From NCBI GenBank assembly GCA_004431415.1, contig QPMI01000425.1, positions 1 to 64,000 of the forward strand: a DNA stretch of 64,000 bases. Reading direction: 5' to 3'. A model generated the notes under the pieces. The model did no database searches and was not told where the DNA came from. It was given only the letters and a program-made list of their open reading frames with translations. The stretch is from Cyanophora paradoxa CCMP329 (lineage: Eukaryota; Plantae; Glaucophyta). Positions within the stretch are counted from its first letter, which is position 1; every line of letters begins with the position of its first letter. The position numbers and the translations under genes were made by a program. Positions 1-45,578 of the stretch are shown one piece after another.

Positions 1-2241
1 CTTCCAACTGATAGTAAGGGAGGAGAAAGGGACACAGGTGGGATTGGAGTAAGATTAAACTTTCGCAAAATACAATCCAACAGGATATCGCTGACAGAGC
101 ATAGGTCACTGTTGCATTTCCGACAAGTGTAAAGCCGGTTGTTGTTATATTTGTGGCGACAAATGGAGAGTAACCAAGGGGCGCATTGTTGAGAGAGGTA
201 GATGATCCATTATTGATCACATACAAATTCGTGTCTGTTATTTCAATAGTAGGAGGGGAAACAAAAGGTGTCTCAAATGTGAAATTAAAATTCGCTGGAA
301 CCCCTGCAAGGTATCTATATGTTGATGCTGATATCTCGGATGCCTGGAATACTTTGCTTCCCCTCTGCACTACATTACTTGTGTCTTTCACATTGTGGTA
401 GGATATACTGGGAGTCGGGGAGAGCACCAACGAAATAGCATCTGGTAAATCAGACTTTGTAATATACAGCTCTTTAAGATACTCCTTTTTGAAAGGGGCG
501 GTCAGATCTCCAATAGTAGCCATGACCCTGCGACCACAATATTACAGGTGTTTGCATTCAAAGTATAAACTGTGTTCCACCTCAAAGAATTCGCCCCAAG
601 ATCGAAATTCTGTGAGAAGGGAACGATATTGCTACCTTGTAAATCTCGGTAAACCTTCACTCTGGGTTTGCTATCGAATTCAGGGGTGATATAATTGATG
701 TTAAGAGTGAAACTAATAGTAGCTTCGGAACTCAATGAGTTGTTTTCGGATGATAAGTAAATTGTATGTCTCGTTAATGACAAACGAAACCTGAAACCCT
801 GTGGAGGTGACATTTTGGATAAATGCTTTATTAGATTCATTATTGTTATAGATAGGATTATAATAAGTAGTGTGATCCACCAATGAAACAGTGGGTATAC
901 TCTCGAAACTGTGACACCCAACTGATCCCAAGTGAATGTATATGTAGGTTTGCCTACATAAGCGACATAGACCCCATTTGCGAGCTGCTGAGGGTATCCC
1001 TCGACAGTGTAGGTCTCAGTTCGCGAAACTGAGCGGGAAAGGTTACTATTAAAGTCGTGTAGCTGATCAGAGCTCTCTCATCAGTGGGTATTGATTGGGT
1101 CGGAGTGAGTGATTTAATGGAAGGATTAAATTGGAGGCAAACATGGAAACTCCATGCATCTGACCATCTCAGATTCGATAAACCAACTCGGTATGTGTTA
1201 TCAGTCGCGGGGTAAATGTTCCTTTTCGATAGAATATGGGCTAAGGTAATTGCAAGCGCTCCATCTGCTGCAAAGAGAGCATTAATTTCGGATTGCAAAG
1301 CGGCTATTTCGGTTGTGTGGGTCGTGAGGGTTCCATCCTGACTGGAATCTTTGGTGTTCTTGCTCCTTTCAAACTCCAAAAACGCCTTTACAATGTCCTT
1401 GCCCAAAAGATCGTTTATATTGTCTCTGGTAATGTGAACATGATCTGTTCTCAGTGCCTGCTTCTCTGTGGTAAATGCCGGAATTTCCTCTGCAAATGAT
1501 ATAGTCGTTTTATCAAGTGCTAAGGATCTCACATTCGGAGCATTGGCGCCAATTATATCCACAACGTTCCCATTTTCGACAATTTCTAAGGTCGGTTTCG
1601 CGGGTCTAATGTGAAAACGCCTCTGTGATTGGGAACCGATCGCTCTTCTGAATAATAAAAGAATCAAGGGTAAGATTGCATGTAGCGACATTAGTGGCGA
1701 AAAACGACTCGGAGTTAAGCGAGTTTACGTTTAGGGTATCCGTAGTGATGTTTACTTGCTGTAATATTGCTCGTCGTTAGATTACCTGCTGAGAGATCAT
1801 GGACGACCTCTACCTTTGTTTTTCGTGTGGATACTCCGGCTATAAGCGTGCTATTATCCCGATTCTCATAGCTGCATTTTGGAAACCGCTCTCATCTTGA
1901 ATGAAGAAGTTTAAGCGACCTCTATCGAAAGCTTTTGGGATGTTCCTACGATTATATCGCACCGTTTTGGGTAACTGACGAGTCGCCTGGATGCTGGCAA
2001 CTCTGTTTCGCTCGTTATCATCAAGTAAAAAGTCGATTCCAAGTTTATGATCCCCCTTCTCGACGTTCATTAACTGCAAAGCTGCGGGTCTGCTCGGTGT
2101 TCCACTGACTGGATCTTCGCGGTCTGCATTGTAATTTATTCTGATAGACCCACGAATTTCGGTGTTTACCTGGTCAGTGTCCTCTATCTGCGTGGTCGAA
2201 TTAATTACTCGTGCATCGGGTCTCGGATTCAGGAACGACAT
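1..2241 (-). CDS. Fibre/tail-fibre-like virion protein(s) of element A, frameshifted, running off the window start
   Basis: ORF pieces 1840-2241, 954-1691, 502-921 and upstream frames. Fibre-type motifs IYPATDNTYRVGLSNLRW, IVPFSQNFDLGANSLRWNTVY and NVTSTGF. The N-terminus (IPKAFDRGRLNFFIQDESGFQNAAMRI) is homologous to the element B gene starting at 20288 (IPSRFDSGRLVFNVQDEQGKQNTALRI). Confidence 0.6.
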
Positions 2242-2283
2242 CCTCTTTATAACAAAGAAGATATATAAGAAGTATATAAGATA

Positions 2284-3775
2284 ATGAAGACCGTCTCGCT
2301 TTGAGTGGAGGGGGGTCGCGCGGAATAATCGAGGCTGCTATACTGGCACAGATTGAAGCACAAACAGGTAACGATCCAACAGCTATTCGACTGCTTTGCG
2401 GGAACATCCACAGGTGGATTAATCGCGCCTCCTATTGAATATCAAGGGAACCGATGGCGCCCCTAAATATACTGCTACTGATATTCTGGCGCTCTACAAA
2501 GCGAAGCTACCGCTGATTTTCGCAATCACGAGTGCTTACATCGATTGTACAGCGCCCCAAAGTACGAAGCAACTAACTTAGAAGACGGTGGCTCTCGAAC
2601 TCTGCGGCTCAGCGACCATGGCGGATCTCTATAAACCCACCATCGTGACTTGCGTTCGACACGGGTCTTAATGTCCCCGTTTTTATTTCAAGCAACGATG
2701 AAGATATTAATGGGATGCTTGTGCGGATGCTGCAAGGGCTACCTCGGCTGCTCCGACCTATTTCGAGCCGAAACAAGTCACAGTCGCCGGGAGAACATAT
2801 TGTTTTAATCGATGGTTGCATGAGCGGAAATAATTCGCCCGGGATCTGTGGCTACACGTTCGCCCGACTTTATTCGGAAACTCATGCGAGGAGGAGCTTA
2901 TCGTGGGTTTCGATTACGGCGGGTCACGTCCAAGACTCTGATAAGGCGACAGCTGGATATTCGTACGACACTATGAAAAATTGGGGGATCGTGCAATGGA
3001 TGCTAAGCGCCACGGATCGCCAATTCTCAGCATGTTCTTAGAGTCGAGCGATCTTAAAACGCCCACGTAAAGCTGCTGGAACTTTTACCCAGAACGATGA
3101 TCAGAATTACGATCGCTACTATAAGCTGAGCGTTCCTTTACCGAAAGATAAAATGACCCTCGATACTATCACAACGAGTCACCTGCAATATTTGGAAACG
3201 GAAGCGCTCGCCTTTGTTTCCGCACAGCAAACGTATTTTAATGCGATGTATTCAGTGCTGACATGAATATCTCAGAGGGCGATGTTCCCATAATTAATCT
3301 GTCCGGGTGCACAGATGTAAGCGCACCCCCGGAGTCTAACTGGGTGCCGCTCGATAATAGCGCCTTTATTGCGGAATTCGGCACAGCCTCCAATGCCCGC
3401 TGGTCGAATGCTACGGGGTGGGTGGGATTTACAAACCCGCCGCAAGGTAGTAGGTCGGGAGGCAATTATTTACGCATCGATTTTCCGCGTCTGTTTATGC
3501 TTTCCTCTATAAAAAATGAAGCCGGCTGCGAATGGAAACTATATTAAAACGTTTGAGATCGATTACCAGCTTACTCCCGGAGTTTCTGCGCTTGTTACAT
3601 ACACAGAAGCCGGCGCGACGAGAGTGTTTACCAATGCAAATCAAATAGCCGGAAGTGCGGATCCCGACGAACATTTCTTAGCGAACCCGAGATCTGTGAG
3701 AACCCTCGTAATCTGGGTGCTCACGACGAATAGCTTCGGCATGCCGAATTGATTTCGAGGGCTACTATGTGTGAC
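2284..3775 (+). CDS. Patatin-like phospholipase with C-terminal discoidin/F5-8C-like domain (element A), frameshifted
   Basis: Across frames: LSGGGSRGII glycine loop, GTSTGG nucleophile motif, ATSAAPTYF and IDG motifs. C-terminal YLRIDF...YIKTFEIDY...RIDFEG resembles the discoidin fold. Confidence 0.8.
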
Positions 3776-4627
3776 GTGTGACAGCGCTTAATCGTGATCA
3801 CTTCGAGCTGGAACGAGAATGAGAGACCGTTTATATCCGCAACAGAGCCCCGCCATTTTCGAAGCGAAATTGTGAGGCGATCTAAATCGAGTTGCGATGT
3901 GACATTTACGAAAGGGATGCTTGCGCTCGGTTCGTGGTAAAAGGAATATCTACCAAAGTCCGAATTCATCTGAATTCGCAATAGATAGGAGTCGTCGACA
4001 TTGTTTTGTCTACCTGTAACCGCTGCGAATTTGGTAAACGGGCGGAGCTCTTCGATATCAAGGTAAATATATGGAATCGCATTAAAGTCGACCATTTTCG
4101 GGCATATAATCGCGTAGCGACTGGGGTAATCTCTGAGTGGAACCGTCACTGGTTCTGTGTGCTGGCGTAAACCACTCCGGGTTCTATGCCGAGACAATCA
4201 CAGAACTCCTGGTCTGAGGACTCTAATGTAAACGGGCTGTTTGGAGAGAGAACACGAAGCGGTTGTAGACAGAGCGAGAGAATAGGAAACCGGGAAGAGA
4301 CCGAGTGGATTAAAAGAACCGCCTGAAAACCGAGTAAAGCATCCTGTTTAAAGCTCTCTCTTTCGGATATCGTTCGTTATCAGCATCGACGTAATAATAG
4401 TCGTTTACGCTGGGAATCGGTGCTATCATTTTGGATGCGGGGATTACTGTGGGCTCTTCGTTCAGAAGCGTTATAGTTATTGTCTGATCGGGCGGAACAA
4501 CATAAGAGCTATTAGGAATCTCAGCTGATAGCACACGAAATCGTCGTACATTATTAAGGCGCGTTTTCAAGTGCAGCACGCCGTTTTCAAGGTCTCTACT
4601 GTCGCAATTTATTGTTATTCTTTTCAT
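3721..4627 (-). CDS. Minor capsid (penton-like) protein 1, element A, frameshifted
   Basis: N-terminal INCDSRD...NVRRFRVLSAEIPNS and C-terminal YIYLDIEEL...LDRLTISLR...DINGLSFSFQLEV match the usual PLV minor capsid signature. Confidence 0.75.
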
Positions 4628-4643
4628 AATCTATTATAGTAAG

Positions 4644-5570
4644 ATGAAAGAATACCTGAGCTTTTCGAGCGATGATCGCGACGAGGAGTTCACACAGCCA
4701 AACAAGTATGTAGTGACATTACCCCGTCGCTATGACAACGTAAAATCGGTGCGCCTGGTGCAGGCAACGGTTCCAATGTTCTATCGACCGTGACAAACGA
4801 TATAGACGCCACTGGTGCAACCATCGAGCGCATGGAACTCTATTTCTCGGTCACAGCTTCGGATTCCGGATTCGTGACCATCACAATCCCCAAAGGATTT
4901 TACACCAAAGACGACCTTGCCGCAAAAGTCACAGAAAGACTCGAAGCAGCTCGCCTTTCAGATTTCGGTGGAAAATATATTAAATGCCGCTATAATACTA
5001 CTTCAAAGATCTATGAGTTTTTCAGTGATAGTAATTTTGGTTCAAGTTCTCTCAAAGCTTCCCCTGAAACCACACTCAGAAAATCCAGTAATCGCAAAGC
5101 AATCGCTAAGAAACTCGCAATATTCGGTTTCAAAGATATTCAGCTATATGTTTACGAGACATTTACCCCTCTTGCAAGCGATACATTCCTTGTATTTAAT
5201 CCTGGACGGGACTGTGACACTTAATCGACGCATTCGCGGCTATACTCGTGGAGATGAGACCCCGGCTGCAATGATCTGGCTATATATTGACGAATTCGCG
5301 CCGTTTATTCGCTCAGTCAACAAGCACGTCGACGGTTATTTCATGCGCATTCCAATCCCACAGGAACTCGAACATGGTGATATCTACCACTTCGACACGT
5401 CCACTACTGTGCCTCTCGTTCGCGAATTCCGCGAATTAAAATCTTTCGACCGCCTCACGATTAAACTCATCGACCATGATGGCGCTCTCTTAGATTTCGG
5501 GGTTTGGGCGCATTATTTCACTTTTGAAATCGAAACCTACGACGCACCGCCCGAAATGAATTTCTACTAA
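4644..5570 (+). CDS. Minor capsid (penton-like) protein 2, element A, frameshifted
   Basis: SSDDRD...YVVTLPRRYDNVKSVRLVQATVP at the start; FDRLTIKLIDHDGALLDFG...FTFEI at the end. Confidence 0.75.
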
Positions 5571-5617
5571 GCCCTTTAAATTATTTTCTGATCCCAAAGA
5601 TAAGAGAAGAAACGCTC

Positions 5618-6929
5618 ATGGAGACTAACAGCCAATTCCAGCGCCCAACGCTGAAATCTATGCTCACCACCGATGACTACAAGGATTATTTCCTAAACAA
5701 GTCGCTGGTCATTGGAACGTCCTCTGGCACTAAGCCACTTCGAGTTCTGGTCGCCCCCGACACTGAGCCACCCAGCGCTCTCGGCAACCGAGTTGTCTTC
5801 AAAATCCCCCGCTACCATTTCCTGAATGGTCTCGCGCTGCAACTCGATCTTAACCCGATCACCCTCACTGATCTCACGAATGGTGTCGCTGGAACTACTG
5901 GCTACCTTCGCGTTATTGGATCGCTAATTAAGCGCATCGAAATCTCTCACGCTTCATTCCGCTACGTTGTCCCAGAGGATTTCGTCACCCAGTATTTTCT
6001 ACTGATGACCGAACAGGGCGAACTCGATAAGAAACTTCGCTATGTGGGTGGTCTTGTCGGAACCGCTGGTAACACTGTCGGTGGAACCTACGAAATCGAT
6101 TTACCCTCTCCTTTCGAGAAGGCGATGTTCCCACTTTGCGCTCTGAACTCTGAGATCGTGGTCGAAATCGAATTCAAGGCGATTGGTGATGGTATCATTG
6201 AGGATGTAAACAATGTTGGCAATATTTCGGTCGTAAACAATGGTGCTTCCCTTCAAGTGCTGAAACCCCGCATTATCTGCAAGGTCGTAAATGCCGATGA
6301 GGCGGTTGTATCTGAGACCATTGCCCGTGTTAAAATCGACTGGTATCGCGATCCCCTACAACGAAATCGGTTTCCTCCACACAGATTTCCAGCCGACCGC
6401 CTCCGGTTCGCGAGTCAATCTCTCGCAACTCACAGGTGCGGGTCTCATCCACACTCTCGTATTCTCTGTGCGCCAAAACGCGAAGACGAAGGTGAACAAC
6501 GGAACTCTCTCGGTTCTGGCTCCTCGTGCACTCCGAACCAACGCTGTAAGCTTCTATGTGGAACTCAACAATAACCGCCTTACTCGAATACTTCGCTTCC
6601 TCTCATGATTGCCGCGACCGAACTTCAAGATAAATATAATTCGGCGATTTTACCGAGAGCACAAGCTACCCCGCTCTCACTGGCATTTACTTCGGTGCTG
6701 GAAACGGAAAGGCGTCGCTTCTCAACCAAGAGAACACGGGCTACATCGATGCCACAGGCACATCGGCGTTCGATCTGGTCTTCGAATTCAATGTGTCACA
6801 GCCGGTGGAGTCGGTAATGAGGAGTGGTATGCGGGCTCCGCTTTTCCAGAAGATGCAAATTCAGTGCATTGCGCTCGCTCATAACATAATGATAATTGGC
6901 GCCACGGAATCAGGCGTGTGAGTAGCTAA
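5618..6929 (+). CDS. Major capsid protein (double jelly-roll, inferred), element A, frameshifted
   Basis: About 435 codons. RVVFKIPRY..L..L.LQLDL, GSLIKRIEI and FPLCAL.SEIVVEIEF recall NCLDV/PLV capsid motifs. It lies between the pentons and the packaging ATPase, with a homologue at 23894-25260. Confidence 0.7.
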
Positions 6930-7055
6930 GGAATTCGTGCGATTACCACATTCAGTCTTATTTTTACAACATTTTCATCGTTTTGGAAATTCCCAGTAAG
7001 AGATACCCACAAAAGCATTAAAGACAAGACAACAATCAGTATATTAAGAAACAAG

Positions 7056-7997
7056 ATGACTCCCGCTCTGACTCACGATCAATTCGTAGCTCGGTCTCAG
7101 AAAGATTCCCAGGTAAATTTGCATATGAGAAGGCGAAGTATAAAACATACTGCTTCGACAAGGTCACTTTGATTTGTCTGACATGTAACACAGAATTCGA
7201 ATGTCTGCCTTCAAACCATTTGAAAAAAAGGTGGATATGGAGGGTGTCCCGAATGTTGCAAGGTCATGCTTCACAATGATAGAGTCACTCAAAGGACTTG
7301 TTTTTGGAGCGAGCTCGATCAGTGCATGGAGACCAATACGATTATGACTTGACGAATTACAGAAACTGTCGATCTAAGATTCTATTCACTGCAAACAGTG
7401 CGGACAACGACTTTGAGAAGACTGTGTGTAAGGTTGTGCGAAGCGAAGGATGCCCGAAGTGTAGTTTCAAAGCGAAATGCAAGAAAAGAAGTAAGCCACT
7501 CGATATATTTTTGAGCGAAGTCAGTGAAGTTCATGGAGATCTTATGACTATTCAGCAACAGAATAACACAAACAAACGCACACACGTTACCATTAATGCA
7601 AGAAAATGTAGCTCAAAGTTTCATGCCTACCACAGAATCATCTACGGGGGACTGGTTGCCCCCGCTGCAATTTTCGAAAGGAGAAATCGCCGTTGAACAA
7701 GTCTTGAAGTCTTTGGAGCTTACATTTAAACAACAGCACCGTTTTGCAACTGCAAAAATAAAAACACGCTTCCTTTCGACTTTTACATTCCTTCATTGAA
7801 GATGCAATTGAGTATGACGGGCGCTTACATTATGAGCCGGTCGATTACTTTGGGGTCAGGAGAGATTAGATACGATTCGGCTTCATGATGGCATAAAGAA
7901 CCGCTACTGCGAAGCTAACAACATTAAGCTCCTCCGCATACCATACACTGAAAACTGATATTAAGGTTGCATTGAGCGCTTCCTCTCATCGCTCTAA
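7056..7997 (+). CDS. Zn-binding-repeat (DUF723-like) plus PD-(D/E)xK endonuclease, element A, frameshifted
   Basis: Repeated HG.xYDY...CxxC...GCPxC units; C-terminal PFDFYI...IEYDG..H...LLRIPY; intact homologue at 25334-26065. Confidence 0.75.
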
Positions 7998-8042
7998 TTA
8001 CCACACTCAGTCTTATTTTTCTATTGTTTTTATAGTGAAAGA

Positions 8043-8840
8043 ATGCAAAAGGGACGACGCCATGGATCTCGAAGAATGGAACCCGAAACAAAGGGTGAAA
8101 CTTCCCGCACGATTTCTCCTATTGGCGAAAACCAATTGTGGTAAATCGGTATTCTTAAAGTGGCTGATCAAAGAACTCGAAGACCAGATCTCGTATGTTC
8201 TGGTTTTCTGTCCTACGAGTTTTAACGGTTTCTGGGGTCAAATAACAGACGAAGTGCATGATACTGGAAACCGGAATATGTAGAGTCGATCATAGAAGCC
8301 CGCAAAAAAGCCATCATCGCGGGTAAGAAACCAAAGAATATTCTCATCGTACTCGACGATTGTTTGGAGTCCGGAACTATCGATCTTTCGCGCGATCATT
8401 TGCTAAATAAATTGATGGCGCAAGGTCGTCATACGTTTTGTTCCGTGCTTTAATATCGCAGAAACTAACAAAACTTTCAACGTCATTCGCAGCAATGCGG
8501 AGTATATCATATTCCTAAGCTGGTCAACATGCGAGAGTTTGAAGCATATCACGAGGAATTCGGGAACATGGATAAGGAGAGTTCAAGCGCATGTTCCAAG
8601 AATTCTGTCATAGCTACCAAGCGATCATTCACGATAATACCGGGTATTCTGTGCGATGGTGGGTCGAAAAAGCCGATATGATCGATGACCACCCGTTTAC
8701 TAATTCCACAAGCGGGCGGCTTTTGAAGAAAGAAGCGCAAACAGCAAGAGGAGCAAGCTACAAAACCGCGCCTGTCAAAGATTCGACAACTGTCTGTAAA
8801 ACTTTTCCAAATTTGAACGTGAGCTTGAAGGTATCCCCAA
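8043..8840 (+). CDS. A32/FtsK-like genome packaging ATPase, element A, frameshifted
   Basis: Walker A AKTNCGKS, Walker B ILIVLDD, and the GRH motif (caaggtcgtcat at ~8421). Confidence 0.85.
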
Positions 8841-8899
8841 ACTTTCCCAAATTTCGCCTAAGAAAAGAAAATGTAATCAAATGTAAAGAGAAGATAATC

Positions 8900-9480
8900 A
8901 TGGTCTACCGAAAGAAGCCTCAAACCCTACAAGCGGTCGCTTCTGGTAATCCTAATCGCGGACTTGAAGAGTCTGGATTAACGTCGGGTGGCGTCTCGAA
9001 ATGCCCGAATATCTTGTAGACACTTCGCCAGAAGAGGTCGCCAAGCAAGAGGCAATTATTGCGGGTGCCACCGCGGACAAGGGCAACCAAGATAGCGGTA
9101 AACGCCAAATGGAGGATTTAGCTACTGTAAAACACAGATTGGAGGCGGCTCTGTTGATGAAGCAACCGACAAAGTACTCAAAGCGCAAGTTGTTGCAAGC
9201 CACACAGACACAAGACGTCCCGAAAGCCGCCGAAACCGAGCTTAAAAAGCGCGGATCCTATCAAAAACACACTGGTTCCAGTCGACGTTGTCATGAGCTT
9301 CGAAGAGAAAGTGCGAGATCTTGAAATGAAAGTGTCAAACTACGAGAAATGGATGCAAGATTATAACGACGCAAGAAATTAAAGGGGCTCGTAAAGAAAG
9401 ATCTCGAAACTCGGATTAAAGCAAAAAGTCGACGTAGAGGAGATTAAAAAGGAGGAAAAGACAGATGCGCAAGCCGTGAC
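8900..9480 (+). CDS. Charged hypothetical protein (possible core protein), element A, frameshifted
   Basis: IIAGATADKG matches RIIGAADDKG in the syntenic element B gene 26944-27678; basic, coiled C-terminal half. Confidence 0.5.
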
Positions 9481-9808
9481 TCGTCAGCAATCGGTCGCCC
9501 CGCAATATGCTCACATAGTGCCGACTGCACCAGCGAATTTCGCGGCAATGCTCGGTGGTAAACGCCATATTCGTTATGGCTGTGAATATCCGCAAGGCAA
9601 AGCTGAATCCGCCCGTATTTAGAGCGGGTCTTAGCGGCACGCAGCTTGCCTCGCGCAAGCGCTATGAATGCCCTTGCAAAACGGGCATGTCGGCTCCATA
9701 AACAGCATTATAAGGTCGACCAACTCGTAGGGGAACACACGAGCAAGTAAAGCCCTCATTCCCTTTTATTTCTCCGATATTTAATACGTTGCCCATTTGT
9801 AGGGTCGA

Positions 9809-10218
9809 TGAATTTCATCACACAATGCATCGAAATGTTTCATTTGCATTTTACAAGCACGTGCCACAACTCTGCTGCGACACAACCGTAGAGGTTGATA
9901 TTACAGATGAAGACCATGAGGTAGGCGCCTTTCTGTATATTCTAACCACAGCGACAATCACAACCACACACGATCTCGATCGCCCTCGCCTGTGCGCACG
10001 CTATGAGTTCCAATATCGAGACCTCTCAGATAGAGGATGTGCATGTAGAGCATATAGAAGGCGATCATGTCCTGAATTTGTGGAAGGGCATTTGCGCGCT
10101 GATCTCACCTTATCCGATGTATAGATTGGATCAAATGGCATTAGGCGACGATGACAGCTTAACAAACCCTTATGTAATCCTCAGCAACAAGAAAGAAACC
10201 GTCTGGAACGGTTATTGA
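9809..10218 (+). CDS. Small Cys-rich hypothetical protein, element A, frameshifted
   Basis: MNFITQCIEM...CCDTTVEVDITDED aligns with 27701-27973 (MDIIRKFIEM...CCDTTIEFEMSDTED). Confidence 0.55.
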
Positions 10219-10340
10219 GCGGTGAATTTCGGTGGCGCTTGTATCGATCCGAGGGCAAAAATTGAAGGTTTCGGTAAAGGTATATAAGGGCAAGGGAAAT
10301 AATACAGAGTGACAAAAACTATTTTCTCCGGTTATAGTAA

Positions 10341-10668
10341 ATGGCGAAACCCAAGATCTCGAACCAAGAGGCAATGGCGCACAGCAGGAAAAGCGCAGAC
10401 CCGGGAGACCGAAAAAGGTGATCACAGAAGAGGAGAAAGCCGAGAGATTACGACTAAAACGCGAGAAAGATGCAGAGCGGCAGCGAAACAAGCATCAGAG
10501 ACAAAAGCAGAGCGATTAGCCGCAGGGGAAGCGACCGTATTTACCCCGGAGCAGCTACAAAAGATCGCAATTCGTAAACAGCAGCGATACCAAGACGATG
10601 AAGAGTATCGGAGAAAATCAGGAAAAGCACGGGAATACCAACGCAGAAAAAGACGGAACGAAAGCTGA
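10341..10668 (+). CDS. Small basic hypothetical protein, element A
   Basis: QQRYQDDEEYRRK resembles QKRYREDPEYREYKK of the syntenic ORF 27957-28205. Confidence 0.45.
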
Positions 10669-12650: not shown

Positions 12651-12769
12651 TAAGAATACTTAGAAAAATTATTAAACCTAATCGAACCTAATGCAAACAT
12701 CTTATATTCCACTGTGATTGATGAAGTAGCCTTTTCCTATAAGCTTGAGAATGCTTTTTGTTGCATTCC

Positions 12770-35500: not shown

Positions 35501-35742
35501 ACAGTTTCAGAACTGCTGAGATTGAGAGAAGTAAGCTCTCTGGGACTTCCACTGAGGAACTCCAATTTAATGATTTTAAGCAGTGTTTATTTGCAGGTAT
35601 CAGCAAGACTGTGACTGCAAAGCAGAAAAGAAGGGCAGACCACACAATAATAGATACTGTGAGTAGAAGGGTTGCCCTAAACTGCTTTGATGCAAAGAGA
35701 TACATCTTACCAGATGGTATTAATTCTGTTCCTTTTAATTAA
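32505..35742 (+). CDS. polB: Protein-primed family B DNA polymerase (Maverick type) with protease-like N-terminal region and inserted endonuclease VII-like Zn domain, frameshifted
   Basis: Polymerase motifs FDANNLYG, KLMNNSIYGK, HDTDSF, GLRAKVYS and FDAKRYIL; CYLC...RDHDH.TG....ACRNCNL insert; N-terminal DDSCFENAI...GHY. Confidence 0.92.
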
Positions 35743-35745
35743 GAG

Positions 35746-37130
35746 ATGCCAGCAACTGGAAGAATAGTTAGGAGAACCACTGACCAACTGCAAGGTAACC
35801 TACTGCCTATCACAGTTCCAAAGGAGGAAAAGGGGGAATCTCGAATTGTTAAAAAGTCAGAGATGAAAGAGCTTGTCCCTGTAGAGATCCCAGTTGCCAT
35901 TGCAGTGAAAGAAACCAGCAAGATTGCCAAAAGATTCTATGATGTGAGAACTGGTTACAAAGGGCTTCAAGCTATGAGGGCTGAGTTACCAGATGAGTCC
36001 TATAAGCAATTGCAAGAGTTCTATAAAAAACAAGAAGTTGTTCAGATCAATGCACCTGCTATATCTAGAAAGAGAGATCCCATGGTCCCAATCAGACAAC
36101 CCTTGATACCTATGTAATTGATTTGCTCTTTTTCCCAGCTTATAAGAAACAAAACAATGGCTATGATACCTTTATGACTGCTATGGAATCCACACTGAGA
36201 ACTGGGTATATTATACCTATAAGGGATAAATCAGCTCTCACTACATTGGCTGCATTTAAACAGCTTGAGATGAGAGTGGCAAGACCAATAGTAAAGGTTC
36301 AATCAGATGCTGGAAGTGAGTTCCAAAATCGAATATTCCAGGAGTATTTATCTAGTAAATTCATAGAACACCAAGTGAGTGGAACTGCTGACCACAGAAG
36401 CCAAGGTCGAATTGAAGCCTTTAACAAGCAGATTAAGAGACTGATCACAAACTACTGCATAGCTAATAACACAGCTAGATTTTTTGATGTGTTAGGTGAT
36501 ATTGAGTATAATTACAATAATACAGTTCACTCAGCTACTAAGATGAAGCCAGGCGAAACTACAGAGGAGCATTATAGGTATATAGTGGGATTAGAAGATG
36601 AGAGATTCAAGAAATCAATAGCTTATCTTGATACCATGCAACCTGGCATGTTTGTTAGAGTGAAAGTTGAGAAGAACCCCTTTGCTAAACAGGGTAACAA
36701 TTGGTCTAGGATGGTTTACACTGTTGATAGTAGGGAAGGCTTTAAGTTTAAGCTAAGGAGTCCCACTGGTGAGATCATTGATAACAGGTTTGCTTTCCAT
36801 GAGCTGTTGCCTGTGAATGCAGTTGAGTATCTGGAAACCCCTACAGTAGATGCCTTAGAGCAAGCCAAAGAAGAAGCCAGGGTTGATGCTGCTATAAGGA
36901 GAGAGGGCATTGAGGCTGCTAATGAAGTCCCAGATAAGCCTTTGATAGAGGCTAGAAAGGAGAAGACTGGCAAGGTTAATAGGGAACTCAAAAAGCTCAC
37001 CATAGCAGGAACACAGAAACTTTCAGAAGTGAATAGCCAGAGATGGTATAATGACTTTCAAACTACTAAGGAGTCATATACAGCCCCTAAACCTCAAAGA
37101 ACACTAAGAGAAAGGACCAAAACTAGCTAG
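35746..37130 (+). CDS. Retroviral-like (rve) integrase, element B, one frameshift
   Basis: DDE triad IDLLF / QSDAGSEF / RIEAFNKQIK; YNNTVHSATKMKP. Confidence 0.92.
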
Positions 37131-37309
37131 TTTCGATGCCGAAAACTCGTTTTTTCCAAATATATGTATGTGTGATGTACATATATGCATATGATATACA
37201 CATCAACTTGTAGATCTTTTCAAGCGCTTCACAACGCTATGCAGAACGTTGCAAGTAGACAATCTGGTGATCAGATACAAGCGTTTGAAGATGCCGACAA
37301 TCCTGATTG

Positions 37310-38060
37310 GTTGATAAAAGATGTGCCAAAAAAATGCGACATGGATAATAGCCTAAAAAAATATGCGCCATGGATAATGCTCCATTACAAAAAAATGCGC
37401 CATTGAAATGAGCCATGGATAAGGTTGACAAAAAATGCAACATGGATAATGCTTTAGATAACAAAAAAATGTGCCATGGATAATATTTAGTAAAAAAAGT
37501 GCGACATGGATAATGTGACACTGACCATATCGCCGTGATCGTCATGATCTCCCGAGTCCGATGGTGTGTCATATATATCACATACATATGCATCGTCATT
37601 ATGACGTCATTACAATCGTTTACCCCACTGTGGTTTATTCCCAGGTTTTCATGGCGCATTTAATGGCGCATTTTATGGCGCATTTAATGGCGCAATTTAT
37701 GGCGTATTTTATGGCGCATTTAATAAAAATTCCCTACTCTGTGGCATGAGCCAATAGGAAGCAAGCAAATTAAAGTATTAATAATAATATTTTATCTGAG
37801 ATGAAATCTGAGGTATTATCTGAGATATTATCTGAGGTATTATCTGAGATATTATCTGAGATGTTACCTGAGATGTAAACCTGGGGAGAAGTTGAAGGGG
37901 GATACATACAAACACTGATGATCTGTTTTAATGATGCATCATAATGATGCATCATATCAAACTGTGTATATATATATCGCCGTGATCGTCATGATCTCCC
38001 GAGTCCGCCGGTGTGTCATATATATCATATACATATGCAACGTCATGATGACGTCATACC
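37310..38060. repeat. Subterminal non-coding repeat region of element B
   Basis: AAAAAATGCGMCATGGATAA-like units (37325-37515), ATGGCGCATTTW 12-mers (37651-37722), TCTGAGRTATTA 12-mers (37795-37875) and a ~75-bp duplication (37527 and 37974). Confidence 0.85.
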
Positions 38061-38204
38061 GAAACACCCCATACAAAACACTAATATGCATGTATCTCTC
38101 CACCAACTCATCAACTAACAAAGATAAAAACAGTTCCAGAATCCTCTTAACGAGGCTAGCGTGATGATGTAAGTCTCATAGGCTCAATAATTCATATGTT
38201 TCTA

Positions 38205-39263
38205 AGCATCTCCCCTTCATTCCCCAATTATAATTTAAGTGGACTCAAGGTTGACTCATATTAATCGTAAAAGTAGTAAAAGTATATGGATTTTGTTACG
38301 AATTCAATGGGAGGGTTGACTAAGTGGGTTGAGTTGACTCAAATTTCACAGGAAATAACAATGAATCAGAGTATAAATGCATTTTTTGAATCAACTACAC
38401 CAACTAACACTGAGATTTTAACAATATATGAGGTCCTTACTGAATATGGTATGTGTCACAGGTGTCACAGGTCTATCCCAAAGTTTCTCCTATAAAGAGT
38501 AAATTTCCAAAAGTTTGGGATGGACCTGTGACACCTGTGACACTCGATTAAATCATTTATTCATTTAATTAGAAATACATAGATAAGATAATTACTGCGT
38601 TTTTCATTATAAAAGAGGTCCTTACTGAATATGGTATGTGTCACAGGTGTCACAGGTCTATCCCAAAGTTTCTCCTATAAAGAGTGAATTTTCAAAAGTT
38701 TGGGATGGACCTGTGACACCTGTGACACCCAATTATTCATCAAATTCCTAAGGGACCCCCTTAGACTCATAAAAACATGATAAAAACATATAAATTTTAT
38801 GTATTATATCGATTGGATTCAATAAGAGATCTATTTGTTTTATTTAACAAATGAATCTTTTATGGATCTTAATCGAGTTTAGCGATATGTTTCCGATTAA
38901 ATGAATTAAATTTAATTAAATTTAATCGAGAAAGTACATGAATATAATATCGATTAAATCAATTAAACAAATGACCATTCACACATAGTAAAATGCGGAG
39001 TTTTAACCAGAGGCAAGATATAATTGAGATTCAGTTATATTATTCGGAAATATATACAGATTATCGATAGACTCAGTAAGACTAATCGGAAAATAAGAGA
39101 AATTTACGATAAAATATCGAAAAGAATACAAAATAATCGAAATAATTGAATATTCGATAAGATACACACAGATTATCGATTGATTGAAATAGAATATACG
39201 AGATATATCAACAAAATCAATTAAGATAAGCCGAGGGTTAAAACTCCGCATTTTACTATGTGT
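38205..39263 (-). repeat. Right terminal inverted repeat of element B
   Basis: Reverse complement of 11073-12112; ends ...CCGCATTTTACTATGTGT followed by ATACTC. Confidence 0.95.
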
Positions 39264-42200
39264 ATACTCTGAATGGAATCATTAATCCCCGTGTTTTCCG
39301 CAGGGCAGAGCGAAAAGAGAAGCGTGCCGCTCGCACCCAAGTTAATATAGAAAAGCAGAAGCAAAAAGAACAAGAGGCTAAGCGTTTACAGCGCTTCGAT
39401 CGCAAGCAAGAACAGAAACGAGCGAAAGAAGCGAAGCTCGAAGCAAAGCAGCAGAGAGGTAAACTAAAAGCGGTAGAGGATGCGATCAAACGCACTATTC
39501 TCGATCCAATCGCCCAATATGATCCGGAAACTCTCGCGACAGTTACGTTCAAGATGTGGGCACCTGGATCCGGTGCTCGGTCGTCGGAGGTAATTGTTAT
39601 TCCCGGAATTCCCGAATTAAATATACCAGACAGTTCCTTTGTCACCTACCGCAATATAAGAGAGACAGTTTCGGTGAGTGTGTTGCGAAGCTTTGCTCTG
39701 GCGAAAATGGATAGAATGTCTCAAATTCTAATTAGACCGGGTCAAGTTCGTCATGATTGGCATGAGAGCGAATCAATCTTCTATTTACTCAAAAACTACG
39801 ATGAATTGGCAATAGGACTTAAAACTTTCGGCGAAGCATACGAGGTGTTCTTCTTTAAGACACCACCAACCGAGGAACAGAAAAGACTACGCCTAATGTT
39901 TGATGATTTTGGCGGCAGTATCGATGATGCCTTTATAACTGTTCATGAGGTCGCGATCGATGGGGACGAAGTTGTCGAGGACGATGGAGCCGGCGCTATC
40001 CCTGGCAATCGCTATGAGTTTCTGGATGAGGAGCTCATGGACAGTATGCGATGCACCGCGATTATGAGCAAATTCACAGACTATACATTAAATCCAAACG
40101 CGTCTGAGTTCGAAGATGTTATTGAGCTTCCCAAATCATCGACATCTAACGCTTGCGGCTATGATATGATCATCTCCACATGGGGAGCGTCCATTAAGAA
40201 GTGTCAGGAGGCGCCAAAACCGCGATATACTGACTTAACTATGTCGTACGACGGTCTCTATAAATTCTTTCACGGTCGCGAACGCACACCTGGCGACTCT
40301 CTGGCTCTCACGCTCCGCCATATCGAGAAATTCTGTAAGAGAATCCAGACAGGCTTCCGCGTCTTTGATGTCGACGGCAAGTTAATATACAAATTCGCGG
40401 CGGAATCGATTAACAGAAACATCAATCCCCGCAATATTCACTTTATGATTCACAACAAGCACATCTATATATTCAACGATAACATAAGGTCGCTCGAAAT
40501 GCGCATGGCAAAGATGGAGGTCGAAGAGCTCGATAATCATGTTCCTAAGTCGACCTCTTCGTTAGCACTCTATAAAATTCCGACGTGTCTTACTCACGAT
40601 ATCTTCGCGCACACATCCAAGGATCTGTTAAAGATCACGCAATTAAAACTATCGCCTGACGAGCGCAGTTTCATTCGCATTCTTTACACTGGGCGTGAAG
40701 GTCTGGAAGGTCTTCTATTTACGTTCCTGAAAATGCGATATGAGCCCGCTGTGAAGTTAACACCGTCGAAACAGATCGAAAGCATTACATTCAAAGCCAA
40801 TGGCTCGATGTTCTCGATCAAAGACCCACGCACAACCGACCACTTCATTGAGCAAGATTTCGAAACAGAGGAGTATTATAATAAGGTCTGTGAAATCGGT
40901 AAGGGTTTCCGCGAGTCACTACTAAATGCGACGAATATCTCACATTACAGCCCGAACATGCGCGAAATTCTCACGCACTACAAGCGATCCGCACTCAGCG
41001 GCTATTTCTATAAGCCGAACCCGAAAGCCACCTACACAGCTGTCGATATGGCGAAGTGCTACCCTTCGATACTGAAAGGCATGCAATATCTTCCGAAGTA
41101 CAATGTGTTTGATGATTTCGTTCCCTTTAAAGTGGGAAGCGATATTCTCGAATACGCGATCTACTACGTGCGTGTCGTTGCGTTTGAGAGAGAGCAAGCG
41201 ACTTTCGCCGACGATGAGGATGTAGATTATGACGCCGCCATGTCTCGCAAGATTGATGGAATCGAAATTATTCTGGATCGCGCATTTTCCGTGAGTGGTC
41301 GGTGCTACAATTTCATCACAGGCTACACTCTCTCCATGCATTGGGCGGACGTAAAGGACAAGATAGAGATTATCGCGGTCGCGGAGCCTTCGCATTTGGT
41401 GCCCAATACGTCGATCGCTGAGATGAAGAAAGTGCTGTCAAGCGACATTCAATCCACAGACAAGAAGCACATTTTAGTGAAAGAGATCGGAATGCTCGGC
41501 AAATTCCAAGACTCGCAAACATCCACGAAAATGTTCTACAACCGTGCCGAGGCTGAAAGGTTCGCCCAAGAATGCGGAGGAACAGTAGAGGTGTTTACTT
41601 TCAATCCTAAGAATTCGAAACGTGTCAAAGCTCTCAGCGAATTCGAAGGTCACATCTATTTCGTTAAGATCAGCTCTCACCGCGAGCTTGTTAACGGATT
41701 CCTCCCGATCCACTTTCATATTTACGATCGCAACCGCGCTAATATGTTTGCGCAATACAAGCGCCTGACAGCGCGCGGGCACAAGGTTGCCGGGATCAGA
41801 ACGGATTGCCTATATATCGAAGGTTCATGGACAAGTAAGAAAGAGTTCGACCGAAATGCGTTTGAGAACATGGGCAAATTCAGCTATATTCCCGGGAAAA
41901 GATGCCCTGAGAATGCACTCCGCCCACCACGGGGTGTAACTCTCGAATTTCAGGATCCCGACACACTCATTAACCGGTTCTCGCTAAGGGACGAATTTAA
42001 TCCGGAGTGCTTTAATCGGGTTGCGGAGCTCCACAATCGTATGCTTGTCCTTGCTGACATGCCCGGAAGTGGAAAGTCGACACTCGGTATTAACTGCTTC
42101 GCCTCTCAGAAGTCGAATTGCTTGATTATTTGCCCCTATAACAAACAGTGCGCGGAGCTGAGGGACTCTCTCAAAGTCCGCGGAATCGAGAATATTACCG

Positions 42201-43414
42201 TTCGTACTTTGTATAATGTTCTCGGGATCCGTGTCTCAAACGATCAGACCTACGAAGAGGCTATGAGCGAAAAAGACCAGAGGGCGTTCGTCTCCGAGTT
42301 CAGTCACATTATGTTCGACGAGATATTCGCGTATTCCGTAAAAGATCTCGCTAAGATCAAGTCGTTTATCGATCGCTATCCGGATATCAAATATTTGGCT
42401 AATGGCGACACCTATCAAAACGAACCGATTAATGATGAGCTATCGGTTTCTGATTGCAAGGGCTACTATAAGCGTGCGGTGCAGAGCATGTTCCCGAACG
42501 TTCTGAGTCTTCGCATTAACAAGCGACACAAGAAGGAAACAGACCGTGAATTAATTCGGGCGATCAAAGAGGATCTCTTCGAGAACGGACTGGAAGCCGC
42601 ACAGATCATTTCGAAATACGGCTTGCCGACAATTAACGATCTAAGCACTATTCCCGACGGCTACTTTGGCATCGCTTACAGAAACGAAATGACCTTAGCA
42701 TACAACAAACTGATGCACGATAGACGGAAAGTAAATGTTCCAACCGTAGAGGTCAATGGCATCAAATTCTACAAGGGTTTGGAAGTCGTTTGCCGCAAGT
42801 ATCTACGCATTTCGCGGTCTGAGGGTGAGTCTATTAATGCATACACAAATTACACCTATCGGATCACCAAAATCACAAAGCAAATGGTCACATTAACGGA
42901 CGTTTTCGATGGTGTCACGTTCGAGGTTCCGTGCGCGATGTTAGAACATTTTTCTCTCCCTTATGCAGGAACAGGTCATTCAACGCAAGGTCTCACACTT
43001 GATTCGGGCATTGTCATTTGTGAGGCTACGTTCCGCTATACCACTCGCGAATGGTTCTATACCGCGCTCACTCGTAACCGTGATCTGTCTACTGTGCTGA
43101 TTTATACACCGATTCACAGATTCCAAGGAAAGAGCGACTACATCGAATATCTGAAAACGAAGATCCGCGGTTACAAATGCCAGGATCAGCGCGCCGGGCG
43201 CGATTTCGACGAGGCGGATTATATTACGCCGGAGTGGATATTAGAGCGCAAGAAGCAACAGAAGGGCGCCTGTGCGATCTGTTCCCTTCCTATTCCGACT
43301 GAGCCACAAGATCCGAATTACAAGCTCGTCGTGGATCGCATCAATAATAAGCGCCCACACCTTAAAGACAATTGCCAGCTCGTGCATCACGGGTGCAATT
43401 GCAGCAAAAAATAA
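39264..43414 (+). CDS. PolB-like polymerase domain fused to SF1 (RecD/Pif1-like) helicase and C-terminal HNH-like Zn domain (element A); 5' end cut off by element B
   Basis: Uninterrupted ~1380-codon frame. PolB-like AVDMAKCYPSIL, KHILVKEIGMLGK and GIRTDCLYI; SF1 motifs PGSGKST, MFDEI, GDTYQNEPI, NKRH, TGHSTQGLT and YTALTR; CAIC...VDRINNKRPHLKDNCQLVHHGCN. Confidence 0.88.
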
Positions 43415-43432
43415 ACAGGTTTAATTAGAAGA

Positions 43433-44803
43433 ATGTCACGGATCGTTAGAAGGGTAGCGGGCGAGGAAACGGAGACTACCATACTACCTATTGCGGTTCC
43501 TGAAACTGAGCAAGTCCCCCAAAAAATTACAAAACGCCAAGCAAAATCAAATTTATTAGGAGATGTTCCTTTCAGCATTGCTAACCCGTCCTCTAAGATC
43601 GTGCGACGCATGTATGACCCAAAGACAGGTTTTAAGAACCCATCGGCATTGTACGAAGAGCTGAGAAAAGAGGACAAGACCCTCACTTTGAAAGAAGTGC
43701 AAGACGTCGCAGCGAAACAAGAATTTATGCAGATCAACAAGAAGCCCCCCGCACCGACCCAAACATCCTTTATTCCTATCACAGCCCCGCCGTGGTGCTA
43801 CCAAGCCGATCTCATCTTTTATCTCTCATATGGCAATTATAATTCCGGCTACATTGCAGTCCTTACTCTCATCGAGATGACAAGCCGAAAAGCATATGCC
43901 AAGAAGTTAAAGAATAAGGAGGGCGCAAGTGTTGCCGCCGCTTTTGCGGAGATGCTCACAGAGCTCCCGGCTCCAATGATTCGATTAGAGACAGATAACG
44001 GTTCGGAATTCATCGCGAAGGAGTTTCAGGAGGTCGTTAAAAATAATGGAATAGAACACCGCTTTAAACAGGTCGGAGATCACACTTCGCTGGGAATTAT
44101 GAATCGCTTTCATTTGACCTTAAAAACGATGATAAACAATTACTGTGTCGCTTATAACACTGTGCGATTTATGGATAAATTGGACGACTTCGTTTTCAAT
44201 TACAATAACACCATTCACAGAACCATAGGAATGAAACCCGCAGATGTTAAGCTTTCTGATATGGAGCGGATCCGAGCGGCTATTATTTCAAGGAAGAACA
44301 CAATCGTCAAGGATATATTCAGCGACTTTAAGCCGGGTCTCCACGTCCGCCTATTATTGCCGAGATCGAAGTTCGATAAAGGGGCGACTCAAAGGTATAG
44401 TAGAGAGGTCTACAAAATTGCGGGAAGGAGAGGAAACGCGATAGAGGTGCAAGATGCAGCGGGGAACGTTATGCCGAAGCTTTTTAAGCCGCACGAATTG
44501 CAGATCATCTCAGAGGTCGAGGCTGTGGTGGAACCATCAGGCAACGCAATCAAAGCAGCCGAAATAGAAGCCGCTTCTATCCGGCAGGTGCAAAAAGAAG
44601 GCATAGATGTTGCCGCAAGCGTTCCAAAAGGGGATCTATTGGAAGATCGCGCAGAAAAGACAAAGAGGGCGCTGAGAGAGCTCGCTAAATTAACGATCGC
44701 CATGAATGTGCCTGGCGGTGTTAGGTGGTATAAATCATTCAAGAATCAGAGCGCAAGCTACACAGCCCCTACTACGCGCATTCTTCGGTCTTCTCGTTCA
44801 TAA
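43433..44803 (+). CDS. Retroviral-like (rve) integrase, element A
   Basis: YQADL, ETDNGSEF, MNRFHLTLK and YNNTIHRTIGMKP; termini (RIVRR, YTAP) shared with the element B integrase. Confidence 0.92.
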   Translation: MSRIVRRVAGEETETTILPIAVPETEQVPQKITKRQAKSNLLGDVPFSIANPSSKIVRRMYDPKTGFKNPSALYEELRKEDKTLTLKEVQDVAAKQEFMQINKKPPAPTQTSFIPITAPPWCYQADLIFYLSYGNYNSGYIAVLTLIEMTSRKAYAKKLKNKEGASVAAAFAEMLTELPAPMIRLETDNGSEFIAKEFQEVVKNNGIEHRFKQVGDHTSLGIMNRFHLTLKTMINNYCVAYNTVRFMDKLDDFVFNYNNTIHRTIGMKPADVKLSDMERIRAAIISRKNTIVKDIFSDFKPGLHVRLLLPRSKFDKGATQRYSREVYKIAGRRGNAIEVQDAAGNVMPKLFKPHELQIISEVEAVVEPSGNAIKAAEIEAASIRQVQKEGIDVAASVPKGDLLEDRAEKTKRALRELAKLTIAMNVPGGVRWYKSFKNQSASYTAPTTRILRSSRS

Positions 44804-44842
44804 CAAACCCCGAAATTATTTTCTCCGGTAAATATAAAAGAG

Positions 44843-45157
44843 ATGGAGGGTGAAAAGCATTTCGTGGATATTCCCTATGATAAAAAAGACGTTGCGAAAT
44901 CCCTCGGTGGAAAGTGGGATCGTGAGAATTCATGCTGGTATGTCACGAAGAAAGATCACCCCCTATGCTCTCAGTTCAAAACTCTAAGCTATGAGCAAGT
45001 GTATCAAAGAAACGTGAAGGTTTACCTCGATATTCCTTTTGAATTTAAGGATCAAGCGAAGGCTGAGAGAGCCCGCTGGGATCCCGTTATGCGATGCTGG
45101 TATGTCATGGGTCTCGATCACCCGCTAACTGGAAAGTTTCCGCTCAAAGAGCATTAA
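44843..45157 (+). CDS. Tandem DUF5710-like domain protein
   Basis: Two repeats of DIP(Y/F)..KD.AK....(K/R)WD....CWYV. Confidence 0.75.
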   Translation: MEGEKHFVDIPYDKKDVAKSLGGKWDRENSCWYVTKKDHPLCSQFKTLSYEQVYQRNVKVYLDIPFEFKDQAKAERARWDPVMRCWYVMGLDHPLTGKFPLKEH

Positions 45158-45185
45158 GCAAGCGCAATGTCGCTTTTTTCATTTT

Positions 45186-45578
45186 TTATGAAATTGGGAA
45201 CCTTTGCTCAACCTGTAATTCCCACTTTCGTACTTTCAGCCTGTCATGTATGAGTTCGTTAATGTCCCGTGCTATACCCATTGTCTTCGCTTCGGCATTT
45301 GACCCACATGTAAAGATATCGATCGCCAATAGCCCCTGGTCGCTATAAGAGTGAGCTGTGGCATGCGACTCATCTAATAGAAAGCCAATCGCGAAACCGG
45401 GAGGGGAAATAGAGCCATCGAAAATGCATGTGTGCTGGTGCACGATGCGCATATTGCGATCTGTGATATATTGCGATAGGTTCGCTGTGATCCACTCGGT
45501 GCATGCCTCCGGGGACTCGGTGAACGGGTCGGTTATATAGTCGAGCATAACGTGGTAGCCGCGGTATTGGGAATCCAT
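45186..45578 (-). CDS. speD: S-adenosylmethionine decarboxylase-like proenzyme (pyruvoyl-dependent, short prokaryotic type)
   Basis: 130 aa; G.HVMLD, PPGF...LLDESH.TAHSY and AIDIFTCG, with the E|SH autocleavage site intact. Confidence 0.88.
   Translation of the reverse strand: MDSQYRGYHVMLDYITDPFTESPEACTEWITANLSQYITDRNMRIVHQHTCIFDGSISPPGFAIGFLLDESHATAHSYSDQGLLAIDIFTCGSNAEAKTMGIARDINELIHDRLKVRKWELQVEQRFPIS

Follow-up and report, generated by a model that had tools for sequence, protein, structure and literature searches.

Nested integrated elements in Cyanophora paradoxa likely record a replicase swap in a catalogued, apparently unnamed virus family

Glaucophytes hold a key position as an early branch among photosynthetic eukaryotes. 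In the published tables of one survey, the major capsid protein (MCP) clusters 21 and 29 of Cyanophora paradoxa are entered as "new", with 366 hits and no group name (PMC10120064). Table S6 of a second catalogue covers 156 Glaucocystophyceae elements and counts in them rve (85), pPolB (49), D5_N (40), SF1 helicase (34), AdoMetDC (66), lipase (89) and protease (0) (PMC12220804). The fusion of a PolB with an SF1 helicase, as found in Tlr1-like elements, is already known (PMC5499653, PMC11161782). For the Zephyr viruses no endogenous members are known, and glaucophytes are absent from the main text of their description (10.64898/2026.06.19.733378). Replicase exchange has been presented as a general trait of the Polisuviricotina, with tandem integration proposed as its route (10.64898/2026.10.13.758929).

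The window analysed here, the whole stretch of 64,000 nucleotides from contig QPMI01000425.1 of C. paradoxa CCMP329, contains two virus-like elements, A and B. Element B occupies positions 11073-39263 (28.2 kb) and is bounded by inverted repeats of about 1,040 nt and by a 6-bp target duplication. It is nested in element A, at the 5' end of the A replicase gene, an arrangement absent from the first-pass annotation. The left terminal inverted repeat (TIR) of B (11073-12115, forward strand) holds two palindromic GTGTCACAGG/CCTGTGACAC units and pairs with the right TIR (38202-39263, reverse strand), their alignment giving 1011 matches, 5 substitutions and 24 gap columns. The target-site duplication ATACTC stands directly beyond the right TIR (39264-39269, forward), and its left copy (11068-11072, forward) retains five of the six letters, one base being missing. 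B fits the genome size of 14-40 kb, with TIRs, expected of polinton-like viruses (PLVs) in the broad sense; A is incomplete in the window. The left part of A (1-11072, CpG observed/expected ratio 1.22) is cut by the window start. On the right, A may extend past position 45578, and a subterminal sequence of A (45592-46155) is common to the subterminal region of B (37900-38205). A candidate right TIR of A at 62600-62950, which resembles the TIR of B, failed a whole-region shuffle test (54/300) and therefore remains only a lead. The two ends of A are provisional, and the comparison covers a single A/B pair seen whole. This copy of A was likely disabled by the insertion of B.

The gene order that had been proposed as common to both elements, namely fibre (-), patatin-discoidin (+), minor capsid protein 1 (-), minor capsid protein 2 (+), MCP, endonuclease and ATPase, was recovered with the strands as claimed. 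Indeed, the 16 anchors that link A and B between the fibre N-domain and the first small ORF all occur in the same order in both (tblastn/tblastx; Spearman 1.0 on rounded positions). The fibre gene pieces of A (2-2337, reverse), with a weak H-lectin match at the far end, have an N-domain in common with the fibre genes of B (14900-20080, reverse), which encode a C1q domain; the N-domains are 49% identical over 51 aa. The patatin-discoidin gene of B (20325-21783, forward) matches Pfam Patatin and, weakly, F5_F8, and that of A (2280-3550, forward) was assigned by similarity to B. Likely minor capsid proteins 1 (A, 3724-4630; B, 21720-22852; both reverse) and 2 (A, 4650-5570; B, 22807-23840; both forward) are encoded in both elements. 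Their C-terminal pieces give a weak profile match to the PLV minor capsid candidates of L033/L038 (E 0.0015, probability 17), and the N-terminal piece gives no match. The A32 packaging ATPase is in three pieces in A (8062-8750, end approximate, forward) and matches Pox_A32 in B (26120-26915, forward; E 7e-8), the two being 27% identical (E 3e-27).

Two parts of the proposed order need qualification. Between the MCP and ATPase genes, A carries an endonuclease cassette (6945-8011, forward) flanked by the direct repeat ACCACAYTCAGTCTTATTTTT, with a contig depth about 10-fold below its neighbours, and B a homing-type endonuclease (25334-26065, forward) whose 3' region is 76% nucleotide-identical to that of A. 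Position and strand are those predicted, but this gene is likely a mobile passenger and not part of the chassis. Further on, A encodes a charged protein and two small ORFs (8968-10770, forward). The charged proteins of A and B are without detectable homology; the first small ORF is common to both elements (44% over 25 aa), whereas the second has no detectable match in B.

The MCP of A (5618-6921, forward, frameshifted) is 63% identical to protein P0002 and 35-36% to P0001, and that of B (23894-25260, forward) is 51-55% identical to P0001. A phmmer search with P0001, a B-type MCP, against 1.84 billion representatives returned six matches: P0001 itself, P0002 of the A type (E 3e-62), three proteins from ENA metagenomes, and P0003, a spurious match to a repeat adhesin that was rejected as due to chance; the true relatives of P0001 in this collection are only four. 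In a tree confined to the family, outside groups and the fragments P0005-P0007, P0010 and P0011 being left out, A, B, P0001 and P0002 split from the three ENA proteins (100/100). The structural model of P0001, built from a 12-row alignment, is a double jelly roll that matches PBCV-1 Vp54 (E 4e-19, probability 1.0); its mean pLDDT is 62, and it represents P0001 and not the window's own frameshifted genes. A single-sequence fold of the same protein (pLDDT 34) was discarded. NCLDV capsids are the top fold matches of the model, as for most PLVs, and virophage folds rank 43-50. Pfam has no match for P0001, P0002 or the ENA protein P0008, and recognizes the virophage MCP of L035 at E 9e-45. The MCP profile found nothing among PDB sequences, and no relatives were returned by scans of IMG/VR with the B MCP, P0008 or the A integrase alone, or of JGI metagenomes with P0008. 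For L001 and L002, profile comparison of the capsid candidates with this family gave no match (hhalign probabilities of 0.5 and 0.1).

The rve integrases of A (43415-44803) and B (35743-37130), both forward and matched by Pfam rve, group together among 14 rows (99/98) and carry a C-terminal extension that is not present on the integrases of L001 and L002. The two ATPases likewise group together among 9 rows (95/93), and that of L032 groups apart from them. A and B are thus found together in the MCP, ATPase and integrase trees by which the first-pass annotation had proposed to check its reading. These trees were computed without the duplicates L033, L034 and L036; their end branches are long and their small reference sets do not contain the named polintons, Tlr1, TsV, PgVV or Zephyr viruses, so that a fuller sampling could still break up the sister pair. 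The Asn at the third catalytic position of the A integrase, considered as a sign of decay, is shared by L032 and is therefore a natural variant. These results suggest that an integrase can be part of the chassis instead of going with the replication module.

In both elements a replication gene directly precedes the rve integrase, with ORF boundaries at 43414/43415 in A and 35742/35743 in B, and the modules differ in the way first described: a PolB-SF1-HNH fusion in A, and Prim-Pol/D5 together with a polinton-type pPolB in B. The Tlr1-like replicase of A (39264-43414, forward) is one open frame comprising vOTU, PolB palm, SF1 helicase and a C-terminal HNH-type nuclease. It is 25-28% identical to 12 metagenomic proteins, with 82-97% of the searched region covered in 11 of them, and also aligns with L001, L002 and L038. 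The vOTU Cys/His, motifs A and C (RTD), SF1 and C-terminal nuclease motifs align in all 10 of the homologues displayed. B encodes a frameshifted Prim-Pol and D5 (SF3) primase-helicase (28734-31079, reverse) and a protein-primed PolB (32607-35742, forward) with vOTU-like Cys/His, an Endo VII insert and polymerase motifs A-C. The latter is 26-40% identical to the pPolB of L032, and a plasmid search with a piece of it gave no match. Across the window, Pfam recognizes SF1 helicase (weakly), rve, DUF5710 and AdoMet_dc in A, and Patatin, F5_F8 (weakly), Pox_A32, Prim-Pol, D5_N, DNA_pol_B_2 and rve in B. No credible similarity between the replicases of A and B was detected by tblastn or tblastx and, at the level of sequence, the two resemble the replicases of different outside viruses. 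An internal copy of the palindromic TIR unit of B (28581-28691, forward) lies immediately beyond the Prim-Pol/D5 gene on its 3' side; its score of 97 was reached by 0/300 shuffles.

An AdoMetDC and a DUF5710-like domain had been attributed to both elements, and this was confirmed by Pfam for both genes in A and for DUF5710 in B, and by tblastn for the AdoMetDC of B. In A, the DUF5710 protein (44804-45157, forward, two domains) and the AdoMetDC (45186-45584, reverse) both follow the integrase, whereas in B the frameshifted AdoMetDC (12300-12657, reverse; E 9e-9) lies by the left TIR and the gene ending in a DUF5710-like domain (31400-32425, reverse) stands between Prim-Pol and pPolB. The absence of an adenain-type protease, noted at first for B, was also observed: none of the 67 + 90 ORF pieces has a Pfam match to a protease, Ulp1/adenain included. 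Because frameshifts have cut the ORF pieces short, this absence from A and B is likely but unproven. Nor did the ORF pieces match in Pfam VLTF or HUH, genes that go with NCLDV-like PLVs such as Zora and the Mriyaviricetes, and neither an Rfam match nor a tRNA was found. The CpG observed/expected ratio is 1.2-1.3 in A and about 0.3 in B, a four-fold contrast, and the depletion is even over the virion and replication genes of B. The likely host is reported to methylate CpG on repeats (PMC12344493).

Since capsid, ATPase and integrase group together but the replicases are different, at least one lineage has likely acquired a new replicase in place of the one between virion block and integrase. 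The initial view of one family with different replication modules is thus upheld, the replicases matching different outside viruses. It is considered probable that A and B are integrated polinton-like viruses, B nested in A, with a common capsid, ATPase and integrase, and that recombination among co-integrated elements was the likely means of the swap, in either direction. A common ancestor with several replicases, of which A and B lost different ones with nothing gained from outside, is an unlikely alternative in spite of the two that B itself carries (pPolB and Prim-Pol/D5) and of the multi-replicase genomes that have been reported (10.64898/2026.10.13.758929). No Tlr1-like remnant is present in B and no pPolB/D5 remnant in A, a replicase occupies the same pre-integrase site in outside viruses whose virion genes are different (L001, L002, L038, L032), and a three-replicase ancestor is less economical.

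The Prim-Pol/D5, pPolB and integrase genes are exactly those enclosed by the internal TIR-unit copy and the right TIR, as if 28581-39263 were a transpoviron-like replication-integration unit fused to a virion block, replicase and integrase having moved together. Repeat-bracketed replication modules have been reported, as have capsid-less elements under the prefix of the Cyanophora assembly (10.64898/2026.10.13.758929). The B integrase is, however, sister to that of A and hence did not arrive with a foreign replicase; moreover, the internal copy is the 110-nt unit only, without the TIR terminus, and the evenness of the CpG depletion also speaks against a fusion, which is regarded as quite improbable. 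Lastly, a noisy long-read contig might have joined copies of two repeat families, the nested arrangement being an assembly artefact. Variant copies are many, and comparison with short-read contigs gave about 356 indel rows in the 20 kb that it covered, the right halves of A and B (pPolB, Prim-Pol/D5, B integrase) lying outside it. The frameshifts look like long-read errors. Such a joining is nevertheless very hard to credit, given the paired TIRs of B, the 6-bp duplication and the A-like composition on both sides of B (CpG ratios 1.22 and 1.31), and it would leave the shared chassis unexplained.

Under the preferred reading of a replicase swap between integrated viruses, both elements would use protein priming to replicate linear genomes. 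A would be primed by its Tlr1-like TP/vOTU-palm-SF1 protein, and B would be copied by pPolB, with Prim-Pol/D5 at the GTGTCACAGG palindromes as an aid or a substitute. The rve integrase would insert both with a 6-bp duplication, and packaging would produce double jelly-roll particles that bear fibres and use a patatin for entry, no maturation protease being involved. A bolder and distinctly tentative proposal is that of a deep-branching, unnamed glaucophyte lineage with a distinct capsid, in which replicons, bringing their own terminal binding sites, would be interchangeable on one capsid-integrase chassis. Responses to CpG methylation would be opposite, B being CpG-purged and able to stay active, A not, and the insertion of B in A would be a physical intermediate from which deletion could yield a replicase-swapped virus. 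The pair offers a clean natural comparison, in which the virion block and integrase clade are the same and the replicase, terminal repeats and CpG content differ. With an unnamed capsid family present in hundreds of copies in an alga that can be cultured, particle formation would become testable, as would the waking of elements by a giant virus and the route of replicase exchange.

The catalogued viruses of C. paradoxa (PMC10120064, PMC12220804) have the same MCP family as A and B: P0001 is listed in Table S2 of PMC10120064, where another row resembles, by eye, the MCP ORF of A. The catalogued glaucophyte elements also present rve, AdoMetDC, patatin-discoidin, an H-lectin fibre and either SF1 or pPolB/D5, without a protease. 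The passages and rows on these elements offer counts only; they neither name the elements nor show gene order, trees, nesting or a link of capsid type to replicase. The literature search returned no described virus group for these glaucophyte elements, no account of the lineage, of an integrase staying with the capsid or of the CpG contrast, and no nesting of such elements, the nested-PLV search being uninformative and dominated by unrelated papers. The suggestion of an undescribed PLV lineage therefore stands as regards name and description, but its MCP clusters and gene set are already catalogued, and the family is apparently catalogued but unnamed.

Among named groups, the broad-sense PLVs (Polisuviricotina) have in common with this locus the double jelly-roll MCP (P0001 model), the A32 ATPase and, for B, size and TIRs. 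Tlr1 and PLVs with a Tlr1-like helicase (Aquintoviricetes) resemble A by the vOTU-palm-SF1 replicase with a C-terminal nuclease, in which the first Asp of motif C is missing, by an rve integrase and by TIR-type organisation (PMC5499653, PMC11161782). Tlr1 nevertheless belongs to another MCP cluster, with its own column in Table S4 (PMC10120064), and A differs from it by two minor capsid genes, patatin, AdoMetDC and a sister element with pPolB. Polintons/Mavericks (Polintoviricetes) resemble B by a pPolB directly before the rve integrase, long TIRs and a 6-bp duplication; in B, however, no maturation protease was found and a Prim-Pol/D5 is added. Polintoviricetes have MCPs of the Mavpol or GKS1 clusters; by the published table, which places the Cyanophora MCPs in the unnamed clusters 21 and 29, those of A and B would lie outside the Mavpol clusters. 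The Polintoviricetes combination of pPolB and rve integrase is present in B only, A having the Tlr1-like helicase instead. The Virophaviricetes are characterized by a Sputnik/Mavirus-type MCP and protease, neither of which was found in A or B, and transpovirons lack virion genes, whereas A and B both carry MCP and ATPase. Zephyrvirus and other NCLDV-like PLVs resemble A and B in having one morphogenetic module with varying replicases (PolB-SF1, primase-SF3 or pPolB) and a lipase (10.64898/2026.06.19.733378), and NCLDV capsids are the closest look-alikes of the A/B-type MCP in fold and features. The mosaicism of the Polisuviricotina, one morphogenetic module with differing replicases, is that of A and B (10.64898/2026.10.13.758929). 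In that account, however, replicase class tends to track integrase class and the proposed route is tandem, whereas A and B combine one integrase clade with two replicases and are nested.

Element A, an integrated polinton-like DNA virus (PLV), occupies positions 1-11072 and 39264 onwards of the window, split by a second such virus, element B, inserted within it at 11073-39263. The terminal inverted repeats (TIRs) of B, about 1,040 nt long, align with 1011 matches, 5 substitutions and 24 gap columns, and the element is surrounded by a 6-bp duplication, ATACTC, whose right copy is whole and whose left copy is one base short. The insertion point is the 5' end of the A replicase ORF, the position of the start codon being approximate. 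A eukaryotic nuclear setting is shown by a host histone H3-like gene (63420-64000; Pfam Histone, E 3e-27), which appears to have two introns and whose N-terminal tail is divergent. The gene breaks are likely long-read errors in multi-copy families, since the differences between the B TIRs are mostly single-base gaps and since comparison of short-read contigs with the first 20 kb of the window (1-20000), the extent of this frameshift check, gave 356 indel rows and 574 substitution rows, contributed by many variant copies. Among the 12 of these 356 indel rows listed, ten are bases absent from the window. Part of 35700-45600 is present in 20 of the 24 runs listed, all under one organism.

The first-pass annotation had proposed one virus family in which a shared chassis, the virion block plus the rve integrase, carries a swappable replication cassette. 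The common gene order was borne out by 16 of 16 collinear anchors, which run from the N-domain of the fibre protein as far as the first of the small ORFs; the charged proteins, counted there as shared, showed no detectable relatedness between A and B. The minor capsid genes are candidate assignments, the profile match being weak, and no protease was matched among the 157 ORF pieces scanned, in agreement with the first reading. The B major capsid protein (MCP) is 51-55% identical to P0001, a database protein annotated as Cyanophora paradoxa, and the A MCP is 63% identical to P0002. A phmmer search with P0001 against 1.84 billion representatives gave six hits, namely P0001, P0002, three metagenome proteins from ENA (27-30%) and a chance hit to a repeat adhesin. 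The MCP model, built from a 12-row alignment (pLDDT 62), matched NCLDV double jelly-roll capsids first, with virophage capsids ranking lower. In small trees composed without named reference viruses, A and B group together for the ATPase (9 rows; 95/93) and the integrase (14 rows; 99/98), and with P0001 and P0002, apart from the ENA MCPs, for the capsid (7 rows; 100/100). At 44102, the third catalytic residue of the A integrase is Asn rather than the Glu of most; the integrase of L032, an outside virus with a pPolB, likewise has Asn.

The A endonuclease is probably an optional, mobile gene, because a direct repeat lies on either side of it, its contig depth in three runs (129-138, 340-361 and 164-166) is low against that of MCP contigs in two of them (3884 and 1425; depth is not a copy number), and in the 3' region it shares 76% DNA identity with the B endonuclease.

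The replication modules differ, as first proposed. In the A replicase frame (1,390 codons; 25-28% alignment with 12 metagenomic proteins), the Cys and His of the vOTU type, motifs A and C of PolB, the SF1 motifs and, at the C-terminal end, a nuclease motif are conserved. It is the Tlr1-like helicase described in PMC5499653 and in PMC11161782, the latter of which predicts an active polymerase; PMC12721341 notes it as well. B carries a pPolB and a minus-strand Prim-Pol/D5 gene, and no credible similarity was found on comparing them with the A replicase. Replacement of the replicase alone would be the simplest reading, since the differing block sits between two shared blocks. One family with two replicases is the best supported reading, and a fairly probable one. 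The exonuclease motifs of the B pPolB appear degenerate by eye.

Palindromic GTGTCACAGG units, for which an origin role may be proposed, are found in the B TIRs and nowhere in A within the window; a further copy at 28581-28691 adjoins the Prim-Pol/D5 gene. At 62699-62897, two 48-nt repeats, 151 nt apart, contain a CTTACTGA..ATGGTA motif resembling these units and are possibly the A right TIR, a whole-region shuffle test being not significant. A GC-rich array (46148-61533; units of ~149 nt in roughly 1.7-kb higher-order blocks) may sit within the A right end, because it is flanked by a direct duplication of A subterminal sequence (206 nt, 98%; 45950-46155 and 61534-61739). An unannotated segment, a candidate small gene, is shared by A (45592-45726) and B (38065-38205) with 72% identity over 115 nt; relative to the integrase, its orientation is reversed between the two elements. 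Run X17 contains a 2.1-kb contig that spans 12212-14076, covering the B AdoMetDC and neighbouring unannotated ORFs; that the run is RNA is a guess, and the contig is not evidence of expression.

The CpG observed/expected ratio is 1.22 and 1.31 in A against 0.26-0.35 inside B. At codon junctions, the B integrase contains 1 CpG where 16 are expected, compared with 39 for 36 expected in the A integrase. According to the available text of PMC12344493, CpG methylation in C. paradoxa stands at 32% and lies on repeats and silent genes; the low CpG of B may reflect either methylation avoided or mutation by methylation. The literature search found no report of CpG depletion in polintons.

The virus kind, both replicases and replicase swapping are already known, and the A/B capsid family is catalogued, apparently unnamed. 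In the accessible parts of PMC10120064, 366 Cyanophora MCP hits (clusters 21 and 29) are marked 'new', without group name, and Table S2 contains P0001 and one row reading like the A MCP ORF. A third type of Cyanophora MCP, in rows 23-24 of that table, looks like a distant relative of the A and B proteins when judged by eye. The accessible text of PMC12220804 counts, among 156 glaucophyte elements, ATPase in 139, rve in 85, lipase in 89, AdoMetDC in 66, pPolB in 49, D5_N in 40, SF1 in 34, and protease and tyrosine recombinase in 0, and mentions patatin-discoidin fusions. Of the further sources, each available in part, PMC8502044 notes adintovirus-like contigs in C. paradoxa, preprint 10.64898/2026.10.13.758929 shows subphylum-wide replicase exchange, the main text of preprint 10.64898/2026.06.19.733378 is without glaucophytes, and PMC12451622 gives the current virus classes. 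Judging by these named records, C. paradoxa or a near relative is the probable host. The proposal of an undescribed lineage thus stands in part: no description was found in the literature searched (preprint supplements and figures, outside this scope, may place the MCP family), but the capsid family was already catalogued. The locus adds the nesting of B in A, an integrase kept across the two replicases, the difference in CpG and the repeat next to the primase gene.

The proposed placement of a replication gene directly ahead of the integrase was upheld, and outside viruses show it too. One contig, L035, carries a virophage-type MCP (604-4395) and an rve integrase that is kin to the ones analysed here. 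L001, a small outside virus whose replicase is Tlr1-like, encodes a ribonucleotide reductase small subunit (7622-8617). Neither in L001 nor in L002 did the capsid candidate match the A/B MCP profile. An Endonuclease VII insert (33401-34324) in the B pPolB is present in that of L032 too. L001, L002 and L038 share with A the same Tlr1-like replicase directly before the rve integrase, and in L032, as in B, a pPolB (26-40% identical between the two) is followed next by the integrase.
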